64,000 nt of DNA, taken from Escherichia coli. GTDB taxonomy: Bacteria; Pseudomonadota; Gammaproteobacteria; Enterobacterales; Enterobacteriaceae. Where the stretch lies: the NCBI RefSeq assembly GCF_003334815.1, contig NZ_QOWO01000007.1; one strand, given 5' to 3'. The notes under the pieces were generated by a model. The model saw nothing but the letters and a program-made list of their open reading frames with translations, was not told the DNA's origin and searched no databases. A program made the position numbers and the translations under genes. Below, one piece after another: positions 16,673 through 45,590 of the stretch (position 1 is the stretch's first letter; each line of letters opens with the position of its first letter).

Positions 16673-16698
16673 AAAGCCACGGATATATCCGTGGCTTT
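16673..16698. terminator. Terminator between convergent yciH and osmB
   Basis: Perfect palindrome AAAGCCACGGAT-at-ATCCGTGGCTTT with an A-tract on the + side (U-tract for osmB) and T-rich downstream for yciH. Confidence 0.7.
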
Positions 16699-16792
16699 CG
16701 AATATTTTACTGTGCGTATTATTCAGTTATTTCGTACTGAACAGAATCAAGCGTATTATAATTGCGAGTCGATAATCGACATTTATTTACGA

Positions 16793-43370: not shown

Positions 43371-43685
43371 ATGTTTAAAAAAGGCTTACTTGCTCTGGCA
43401 CTGGTGTTTTCACTGCCCGTTTTCGCCGCTGAACACTGGATCGATGTTCGTGTTCCAGAGCAGTATCAGCAAGAGCACGTTCAGGGGGCCATCAATATTC
43501 CCCTGAAGGAAGTGAAAGAGCGCATTGCCACCGCCGTTCCGGATAAAAACGACACCGTGAAAGTGTATTGCAATGCCGGACGCCAGTCAGGGCAAGCAAA
43601 AGAGATCCTTAGCGAGATGGGATATACCCACGTTGAGAACGCCGGTGGCCTGAAAGACATCGCAATGCCGAAGGTCAAAGGTTAA
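43371..43685 (+). CDS. pspE: Thiosulfate sulfurtransferase PspE (periplasmic rhodanese)
   Basis: 104 aa; signal peptide; rhodanese active-site Cys in VYCNAGRQS. Confidence 0.93.
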   Translation: MFKKGLLALALVFSLPVFAAEHWIDVRVPEQYQQEHVQGAINIPLKEVKERIATAVPDKNDTVKVYCNAGRQSGQAKEILSEMGYTHVENAGGLKDIAMPKVKG

Positions 43686-43699
43686 AAGAATTCACCATG

Positions 43700-43726
43700 A
43701 GCGGCGCTTATGCGCCGTTTTTTTTT
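43700..43726 (+). terminator. pspE (psp operon) intrinsic terminator
   Basis: GC stem CGGCGC-ttat-GCGCCG followed by nine T. Confidence 0.8.
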
Positions 43727-43870
43727 CTGTCACACCTTATTTACATCCCCATAGATTATTTGCGTCAGCTCACAAATACGCTTTTTCCCTGGTAAAAAAT
43801 GATTTCCTGCGTGACTAAAACCCTTGTGCTCAATTGACAGTTTATTTTCTGCGGAGTAGTCTCTCGTTTC

Positions 43871-43885
43871 ATGGGACCGCTACCA
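43871..43885 (+). promoter_or_regulatory. Candidate LacI-family (YcjW) operator half of a repeated 15-mer, immediately upstream of ycjM
   Basis: ATGGGACCGCTACCA; imperfect palindrome TGGGACC/GCTACCA; exact second copy at 53800-53814. Confidence 0.4.
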
Positions 43886-43897
43886 CGGAAAGGCAAC

Positions 43898-45577
43898 ATG
43901 AAACAGAAAATTACGGATTACCTGGACGAAATCTACGGTGGAACATTTACCGCAACTCATTTACAGAAACTTGTAACGCGTCTTGAGAGTGCGAAACGAT
44001 TAATTACACAGCGACGTAAAAAACACTGGGATGAAAGTGATGTCGTGTTAATTACCTATGCCGATCAATTTCACAGCAATGATTTAAAACCATTACCCAC
44101 ATTTAATCAGTTTTACCATCAATGGCTGCAAAGCATTTTTTCACATGTTCATTTGTTGCCGTTTTATCCATGGTCATCTGATGATGGCTTTTCGGTAATT
44201 GATTATCATCAGGTCGCCAGTGAAGCGGGGGAGTGGCAGGATATTCAGCAACTCGGTGAATGCAGTCATTTAATGTTTGATTTTGTCTGCAACCATATGT
44301 CGGCAAAAAGTGAATGGTTTAAAAACTATTTACAACAGCATCCAGGTTTTGAAGATTTTTTTATTGCCGTTGACCCGCAAACCGATCTCAGCGCCGTCAC
44401 TCGCCCGCGTGCGTTACCGTTATTAACGCCATTCCAGATGCGCGATCATTCAACGCGCCATTTATGGACCACCTTTAGTGACGATCAAATTGACCTGAAT
44501 TACCGTAGCCCTGAAGTGTTGCTGGCGATGGTGGATGTTTTACTCTGTTACCTTGCGAAAGGTGCTGAGTATGTCCGCCTGGATGCCGTTGGCTTTATGT
44601 GGAAAGAGCCGGGAACAAGCTGCATCCATCTGGAAAAAACACATCTGATTATCAAACTGTTACGGTCGATTATTGATAACGTTGCGCCAGGTACAGTGAT
44701 CATTACCGAGACCAATGTTCCGCATAAAGACAACATTGCTTACTTTGGCGCAGGCGATGACGAAGCACATATGGTGTACCAGTTCTCGCTGCCGCCACTG
44801 GTGCTGCATGCGGTGCAAAAACAGAACGTTGAGGCGCTTTGTGCGTGGGCGCAAAACCTGACACTACCTTCCAGCAACACCACCTGGTTTAACTTCCTCG
44901 CCTCTCACGATGGCATCGGGCTAAACCCGCTACGGGGCTTGTTGCCTGAAAGCGAAATATTAGAGCTGGTCGAGGCGTTACAGCAGGAAGGTGCATTAGT
45001 AAACTGGAAAAATAATCCCGACGGTACACGCAGTCCGTATGAAATAAATGTGACCTATATGGATGCGTTAAGCCGCCGTGAGAGTAGCGATGAAGAACGT
45101 TGCGCCAGGTTTATCCTTGCCCATGCGATTTTGTTAAGTTTCCCCGGTGTGCCAGCGATATATATTCAAAGTATTCTTGGCTCGCGTAATGATTACGCAG
45201 GTGTCGAAAAAATCGGATATAACCGTGCGATTAACCGTAAAAAATATCACAGTAAAGAGATAACCCGAGAACTGAACGATGAAGCTACATTAAGGCATGC
45301 GGTATATCATGAGTTGTCGCGTTTAATTACACTTCGTCGCAGCCATAACGAGTTTCATCCGGATAATAATTTTACCATTGATACGATTAATTCATCCGTA
45401 ATGCGTATTCAAAGAAGTAACGCTGATGGTAATTGTCTGACTGGATTGTTTAATGTCAGTAAAAATATTCAGCATGTAAATATTACTAATCTGCATGGTC
45501 GGGATCTGATTAGTGAAGTTGATATATTGGGTAATGAAATAACGCTGCGCCCCTGGCAGGTTATGTGGATTAAATAA
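43898..45577 (+). CDS. ycjM: GH13 sucrose-phosphorylase-like enzyme YcjM (reported glucosylglycerate phosphorylase)
   Basis: 559 aa from MKQKITDY; conspicuously AT-rich coding sequence. Confidence 0.88.
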   Translation: MKQKITDYLDEIYGGTFTATHLQKLVTRLESAKRLITQRRKKHWDESDVVLITYADQFHSNDLKPLPTFNQFYHQWLQSIFSHVHLLPFYPWSSDDGFSVIDYHQVASEAGEWQDIQQLGECSHLMFDFVCNHMSAKSEWFKNYLQQHPGFEDFFIAVDPQTDLSAVTRPRALPLLTPFQMRDHSTRHLWTTFSDDQIDLNYRSPEVLLAMVDVLLCYLAKGAEYVRLDAVGFMWKEPGTSCIHLEKTHLIIKLLRSIIDNVAPGTVIITETNVPHKDNIAYFGAGDDEAHMVYQFSLPPLVLHAVQKQNVEALCAWAQNLTLPSSNTTWFNFLASHDGIGLNPLRGLLPESEILELVEALQQEGALVNWKNNPDGTRSPYEINVTYMDALSRRESSDEERCARFILAHAILLSFPGVPAIYIQSILGSRNDYAGVEKIGYNRAINRKKYHSKEITRELNDEATLRHAVYHELSRLITLRRSHNEFHPDNNFTIDTINSSVMRIQRSNADGNCLTGLFNVSKNIQHVNITNLHGRDLISEVDILGNEITLRPWQVMWIK

Positions 45578-45590
45578 AAAGGAACATCTC

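Follow-up and report, generated by a model that had tools for sequence, protein, structure and literature searches.

PurR and CcpA, which are among the closest sequence relatives of the repressor YcjW, are dimers whose sites are palindromes of 14-16 bp of the form TGnnAnCGnTnnCA (the pur boxes and cre sites), and some of these sites are intragenic and block elongation, as in purB. YcjW itself is a LacI/GalR-family repressor of 332 amino acids, encoded on the minus strand at 56646..57644 of the window, by which is meant the whole stretch of 64,000 nucleotides of Escherichia coli DNA that was analysed. Its best NCBIfam matches are PurR, RbsR and CcpA, each of which scores under the equivalog cut-off, and its relatives in the PDB are PurR, CcpA, RbsR and LacI. 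An in vitro test of the YcjW motif is said to be contained in the work of Zuo and Stormo (Genetics, 2014). YcjW is not mentioned in the main text of Ravcheev 2014.

The regulator, its 14-bp operator, both of the sites discussed below, the inducer and a connection with pspE were published in 2019, and confirmation by ChIP-exo followed in 2021. In the earlier of the two studies (Luhachack et al. 2019, Nat Commun, PMC6599011), the two strongest ChIP-seq peaks of FLAG-tagged YcjW were found before ycjM and between ycjT and ycjU, and the YcjW motif was given as a 14-nt palindrome with a central CG. Purified YcjW was found to shift a ycjM probe, LL58, in EMSA, and was freed from it by kojibiose at 0.5-1 mM but not by sucrose or trehalose, while deletion of ycjW raised the expression of ycjM, ycjT, ycjU and ompG roughly 20-60 fold (PMC6599011). 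The weaker sites reported there, at narP (TGGTAGCGTTACCA) and cyaA (TGGGAACGTTACCA), fit the half-site TGG(G/T)AnC (PMC6599011). In the later study, an independent ChIP-exo analysis that lists 64 YcjW sites, the signal-to-noise ratio is 1665 at ycjU, 840 at ycjM and 120 at the next site, and the list also includes narP and cyaA (Gao et al. 2021, NAR, PMC8464067).

The window is the psp-ycj region of E. coli, and the 1 kb around the first of the two sites is present at an identity of at least 95% in 5,423 of the 5,426 complete E. coli genomes, where it is annotated as pspE and ycjM. Gene coordinates were transferred, by an offset, from an E. coli locus of identical sequence that is annotated in RefSeq. 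The regulated operon ycjMNOPQRSTUV-ompG, which is assigned to sugar utilisation, occupies 43898..56535 on the plus strand according to this annotation and has a gene order that is shared with other genera; it includes ycjM (43898-45577), ycjT (51566-53833), ycjU, also called pgmB (53830-54489), and ompG (55630-56535), all on the plus strand, and ycjW is convergent with ompG. The operon is often damaged in nature, for example by an IS1 element in ycjM (strain ABW_A32) or an internal stop in ycjN (strain EC7), and Shigella boydii and S. dysenteriae carry proteins of 805-822 amino acids with alpha-amylase and solute-binding domains that look like YcjM-YcjN fusions.

The operator pair and its occupation by YcjW

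The two copies of the 14-mer TGGGACCGCTACCA in the window are, with a probability of about 95%, operators of YcjW, the repressor encoded convergently at the end of ycjMNOPQRSTUV-ompG. The 14-mer is an imperfect palindrome, as had been recognized in the initial annotation, which was made from the DNA letters of the window. The halves TGGGACC and GCTACCA meet at a central CG and form five of the seven possible complementary pairs; at least five pairs out of seven are found in only about 1.3% of the window's 14-mers. LacI/GalR-family operators are expected to be inverted repeats of 14-20 bp centred on CG, and TGGGACCGCTACCA has this form, the layout of its two halves being typical of the operators of the family. 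A cognate LacI-family regulator is also found beside the regulated locus, in the form of ycjW. The repeat had originally been described as the 15-mer ATGGGACCGCTACCA, and the functional unit is taken here to be 14 bp rather than 15 because other genera do not keep the 5' A and have either A or G there.

The first operator, O1 (43872..43885, plus strand), is an exact copy of TGGGACCGCTACCA in front of ycjM. It had been placed over the ribosome-binding site of ycjM, when in fact it adjoins the Shine-Dalgarno sequence GGAAAGG and ends 12 nt before the ATG at 43898. The second operator, O2 (53800..53813, plus strand), is the identical 14-mer, separated from O1 by 9,928 bp and located at the 3' end of ycjT, where it is read within the codons N-G-T-A-T-K; the ycjT stop codon is at 53831-53833 and the ycjU (pgmB) ATG at 53830. 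The description of the second copy as a repeat that precedes ycjU holds in that the site ends 16 nt before the ycjU ATG, but the site is intragenic in ycjT and not intergenic.

The 50-bp EMSA probe LL58 (PMC6599011) corresponds base for base to positions 43855-43904 of the window, with the 14-mer near its centre. The top two ChIP-exo peaks are 9,810 bp apart, compared with 9,928 bp between the two 14-mers. The ChIP-exo peaks were mapped to the window using an offset derived from what we take to be the K-12 coordinate of pspA, and the one support for this assumed offset is the exact centring of the ycjU peak, which falls at 53791-53820, on O2. Under the same offset the peak labelled ycjM (NC_000913.2 1368320-1368355) falls at 43978-44013, about 100 bp downstream of O1 and inside ycjM. 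The possibility that this displaced peak marks a third YcjW site was considered and rejected, since no motif is present at 43978-44013 and this stretch is among the least conserved of the gene; the displacement is regarded as probably a peak-calling or table issue. A weaker ChIP-exo peak (signal-to-noise ratio 38) maps, again with the assumed offset, to 45657-45694 at the start of ycjN, where there is no motif. The attribution of both sites to YcjW that had been made from the raw sequence agrees with the ChIP-seq and EMSA results (PMC6599011) and with the ChIP-exo results (PMC8464067), so that this reading of the sequence had picked out a real operator pair and the right regulator.

The YcjW dimer is proposed to bind each of the two 14-bp imperfect palindromes, with the hinge helices over the central CG and one TGG(G/T)A half-site read by each helix-turn-helix. 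Kojibiose, which is the substrate of YcjT, frees YcjW from its operators and induces the operon.

Conservation across genera and readings other than an operator

A scan of genome contigs with YcjT returned only five close relatives, at 94-96% identity, and distant loci were found by exact-sequence look-ups and by a protein search with YcjM, in which the YcjM proteins are 69-74% identical to that of E. coli. The loci compared are those of Citrobacter amalonaticus, C. koseri, C. rodentium, Superficieibacter, Enterobacter hormaechei, Yokenella and one further assembly (locus L013). Each of the distant loci, of about 21 kb, contains exactly two matches to the motif with at most one mismatch, and both matches are at the orthologous positions. 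The flanks of both 14-mers have diverged across Citrobacter, Enterobacter, Yokenella and Pseudocitrobacter, whereas the 14-mers themselves are invariant. At O1, all 14 positions are invariant in all ten of the aligned ycjM upstream regions, in which 48 of 151 positions are invariant overall, and the O2 sequence is identical in nine of eleven aligned ycjT 3' ends, in which the mean column identity is 63%. O1 and O2 thus both show the pattern of a phylogenetic footprint, in which the site is kept and the flanks are not.

The two exceptions at O2 differ from the common sequence by one or two bases: they are Escherichia sp. MOD1-EC7003, with the synonymous change T10C, and Superficieibacter, with TGGGACCGCGCCCA. 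The variant operators of the former are TGGGATCGCTACCA at O1 (L006:2308-2321) and TGGGACCGCCACCA at O2 (L006:12235-12248), and in the latter the O2 sequence (L009:19912-19925) changes the YcjT peptide to G-T-A-P. The flanks of O1 covary: the 14-mer is preceded by CA and followed by CG in Escherichia, three Citrobacter species and Yokenella, preceded by CG and followed by TG in Pseudocitrobacter, Superficieibacter and Enterobacter, and has TG on both sides in locus L013. The C at position -2 is paired with the G at position +2 in all of these except L013, a pairing by which the palindrome at O1, though not at O2, reaches 18 bp. The four asymmetric positions of the operator are conserved, in the same orientation at both sites, and the conservation of these non-palindromic positions may point to an orientation dependence of binding or function.

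The coding position of O2 allows constraint on the DNA to be separated from constraint on the protein. Among 118 YcjT columns with an invariant amino acid of four-fold degeneracy, only four keep the third base across nine diverged species, and two of these four belong to neighbouring codons of the operator, for Gly and Thr. Within O2 the bases at third codon positions, G, C, T and C, are conserved. The remainder of YcjT that follows O2 varies in both length and sequence, so that the peptide GTAT looks like a consequence of the operator rather than its cause. The regulator has been conserved in parallel with its site: a LacI-family gene convergent with the operon after ompG, with Pfam LacI and Peripla_BP domains, is also present in Enterobacter, Superficieibacter and C. 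koseri, and residues 1-34 of the YcjW orthologues, which include the helix-turn-helix, are invariant save for one A/S change. This near-invariance of the DNA-binding domain matches the invariance of the operator.

The repeat statistics of the window do not in themselves separate a functional pair of sites from a coincidence. The search of the window confirmed that ATGGGACCGCTACCA occurs in exactly two copies, both on the plus strand, at 43871-43885, as had been annotated, and at 53799-53813, one base lower than the 53800-53814 given originally. No third copy was found in the window with up to three mismatches allowed, and the two matches obtained at this stringency compare with 1.07 expected. 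Second-order Markov shuffles give 3.1 direct and 4.8 inverted exact repeats of 15 nt or longer, and the window as a whole has 13 and 16. Because exact repeats of this length are so numerous, the bare repetition of the 15-mer is no proof of function, in line with the caution of the initial annotation that a lone 15-mer match may be due to chance. The degenerate motif TGGKANCGNTMCCA has two matches in the window compared with 0.01 expected, an expectation that is partly circular because O1 and O2 helped to define the motif. Other members of the repeat census are a 23-nt exact direct repeat, GAATATTCTCCAGCACCGTCTCC, at 25018-25040 and 25124-25146 (106 bp apart), a palindromic inverted repeat at about 16673-16702 with overlapping arms of 19 nt, and a 15-16-nt inverted repeat at about 25439-25483. 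No additional operators were found in the ycj locus at up to two mismatches, and the three matches with two mismatches that occur elsewhere in the window are at the level of chance. The intergenic regions ycjW-ycjX, ompG-ycjW and ycjV-ompG offer no match to the operator better than three to five mismatches, and hence no indication of autoregulation of ycjW through this motif.

What distinguishes the operator pair from a functionless coincidence is thus cross-genus conservation and published binding, not repeat statistics. The invariance of both copies at orthologous positions in several genera with diverged flanks, the conservation of synonymous sites within O2, and the presence of YcjW on both copies in the published ChIP-seq, ChIP-exo and EMSA data leave a chance origin with a practically negligible probability, and it was rejected on these grounds of conservation and binding. 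The same conservation could also be produced if the 14-mer were a shared element of the RNA leaders, acting in translational control or as a target of a small RNA, with the binding of YcjW being secondary. Both copies are transcribed in the same orientation, 12-16 nt upstream of a start codon and next to a Shine-Dalgarno sequence, the spacing between operator and start codon at ycjM is 11-13 nt in eight of nine species, the four asymmetric positions are conserved, and O1 with its flanks folds into a 7-bp hairpin in Enterobacter and Superficieibacter (z -2.0 to -2.5). A hairpin would, however, be given by any palindromic operator, the E. coli leaders fold no better than shuffled sequences (z -1.39 and +0.77), no fold is common to the two sites, and the conservation is already explained by double-stranded DNA binding, release by kojibiose and derepression upon deletion of ycjW. 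A primary role in RNA is accordingly considered extremely unlikely.

A presumed ycjM promoter and the neighbouring pspE gene

The alignment of ycjM upstream regions suggests a promoter immediately before O1. The presumed -35 element is TTGACA (43834..43839, plus strand), contained in a block TTGACAG (43834-43840) that is invariant in the ten aligned genera and species, and the presumed -10 element is TAGTCT (43857..43862, plus strand), at the end of the nearly invariant GAGTAGTCT (43854-43862) and separated from the -35 element by a 17-bp spacer. The assignment of these elements was made from the phylogenetic footprint only. A scan with a promoter consensus called no promoter at O1 or O2, and the presumed ycjM promoter is missed by the scan because its -10 element matches the consensus at only three of six positions. 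With these elements, transcription would start near 43869-43870 and O1 would extend from about +3 to +16, a placement that agrees with the predicted transcription start which precedes the site in the earlier study (PMC6599011).

On this reading a conserved sigma-70 promoter (-35 TTGACA, -10 TAGTCT) would immediately precede O1, and because O1 would cover about +3 to +16, YcjW bound there would block either initiation or promoter escape, in the manner of LacI at lac O1. The promoter with its start, the steric block at O1 and the function considered below for O2 are what we infer from the arrangement of the sites. About 100 bp upstream of the presumed ycjM start, a block at 43759-43778, TTTGCGnCAGCTCACAAATA, is likewise invariant in the ten aligned genera and species; it is similar to a CRP site of which one half is perfect (TTTGC-N6-TCACA), and just upstream of it is a less conserved GTAACA...TTACA at 43730-43746.

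The gene on the other side of this presumed promoter is pspE, which encodes a rhodanese (43371-43685) and whose stop codon is about 190 bp upstream of O1. The position of the first site downstream of pspE had been noted correctly at the outset, and the site is in addition beyond an intrinsic terminator (43699..43720, plus strand), consisting of a 9-bp G+C-rich stem followed by a run of T, that separates pspE from the ycjM promoter and O1. A link between YcjW and pspE had been mentioned in the initial annotation, and such a link was indeed reported, in that strains with the ycjW deletion or the S258N suppressor have moderately raised pspE mRNA. Direct binding is not the explanation given by the authors, who saw no strong YcjW motif in front of pspE or in the vicinity of pspA and pspF and suggested that the effect is indirect or "leaky" (PMC6599011). 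Direct control of the upstream gene by O1 could be argued from this rise in mRNA together with the short distance from the 3' end of pspE to the promoter and operator of ycjM, which the authors themselves raise (PMC6599011). O1 is, however, well past the pspE stop codon and on the far side of the terminator, a strong motif is lacking before pspE, and the gene itself is not a constant neighbour: pspE is located between pspD and ycjM in E. coli and Yokenella, and the Citrobacter, Enterobacter, Superficieibacter and L013 loci lack it there, so that its proximity to a YcjW operator is specific to certain lineages. Citrobacter, Enterobacter and Superficieibacter keep O1 unchanged all the same, and direct control of pspE from O1 is therefore judged to be improbable.

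The intragenic operator and comparison with other repressors

The role of O2, 9.9 kb downstream of O1, is a separate question from its occupation by YcjW. YcjW bound at O2 could act as a roadblock to elongating RNA polymerase, or O2 could be the operator of a weak internal promoter, and in either mode the repression of ycjU-ycjV-ompG would be tightened. An intragenic roadblock would be expected in a transcribed region far from the promoter, and O2 is located in the last codons of ycjT, 9.9 kb from the ycjM promoter. In the ycjW deletion, ycjU rises by 39-58 times and ompG by 34-47 times, compared with 20-26 times for ycjT, in three replicates measured by qRT-PCR (PMC6599011). The somewhat greater derepression of ycjU and ompG is a hint compatible with an additional block at O2, and is within the noise of three replicates. 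As regards an internal promoter, the sequence TATTTT (53785-53790) is placed exactly 9 nt upstream of O2, which is the same spacing as that between TAGTCT and O1, and it is present in seven of ten species, including the synonymous T of an Ile codon; it also overlaps conserved codons, and the alignment of ycjT 3' ends shows no conserved -35 element ahead of O2. The reading of TATTTT as the -10 element of an internal promoter is speculative. That O2 is a functional intragenic operator with a role of its own, whether as a roadblock or at a weak internal promoter, is proposed tentatively, at less than an even chance.

Two other accounts of the second site have to be weighed against this proposal. 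It might have been kept for the sake of the YcjT peptide N-G-T-A-T, with the occupancy of YcjW there being transcriptionally inert, and in favour of this account the GTAT peptide is retained in eight of the nine diverged loci of the codon analysis, and inert intragenic sites are described as common for other E. coli regulators (PMC10294691). Selection on the peptide would not, however, preserve the third positions G, C, T and C against a background of 4/118, nor is the variable tail after the site what would be expected of a structured and constrained C-terminus; the site is moreover the strongest ChIP-exo site in the genome (PMC8464067), and the identical DNA word is conserved at O1, where it encodes nothing. 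An inert O2 maintained for its peptide is consequently very unlikely. The presence of two identical high-affinity sites in one operon also raises the question of whether O1 and O2 cooperate by DNA looping through a single YcjW oligomer, as in the lac system. Looping of the lac type involves a tetramerisation helix and an auxiliary operator within a few hundred bp, and neither is found here: the second operators of lac are 92 or 401 bp away, as against 9,928 bp, and the alignment of YcjW with LacI covers LacI residues 5-313 of 360 and leaves only 13 YcjW residues beyond it, so that YcjW has no C-terminal tetramerisation helix of the LacI type. A homology model also predicts a YcjW dimer (supplement of PMC8464067). 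Given the separation of the sites and the lack of the helix, cooperation by lac-type looping is highly improbable.

If O2 does have a role of its own, the genes ycjU-ycjV-ompG would be subject to a second, separable layer of control, and the upkeep of the operator would dictate the C-terminal G-T-A-T of YcjT across genera. The two-site layout is already published, and a functional dissection of O2 apart from O1 was not found in the literature searched. The additions made here to that literature are the cross-genus invariance of O1 and O2, the DNA-level constraint in ycjT, the conserved -35 and -10 elements, and the CRP-like block; the invariance, the synonymous constraint at O2 and the promoter elements were not found in the two papers on the YcjW operator (PMC6599011, PMC8464067). 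These additions are refinements rather than discoveries, and they could be of help in the dissection of an operon which is still poorly understood.

The arrangement at O1 would be similar to that of LacI at lac O1, in that a LacI-family repressor has an imperfect palindrome just past the presumed start of transcription and responds to an inducer of the disaccharide type that is related to the substrate of the operon. The sites themselves are different, that of YcjW being 14 bp long with a central CG, like those of PurR and CcpA, whereas lac O1 is 21 bp long with a central G. The intragenic roadblocks of PurR and CcpA are likely to be the appropriate analogy for O2, with the difference that PurR and CcpA are global regulators which depend on a co-repressor, while YcjW is a local regulator of one operon and is released by its inducer.
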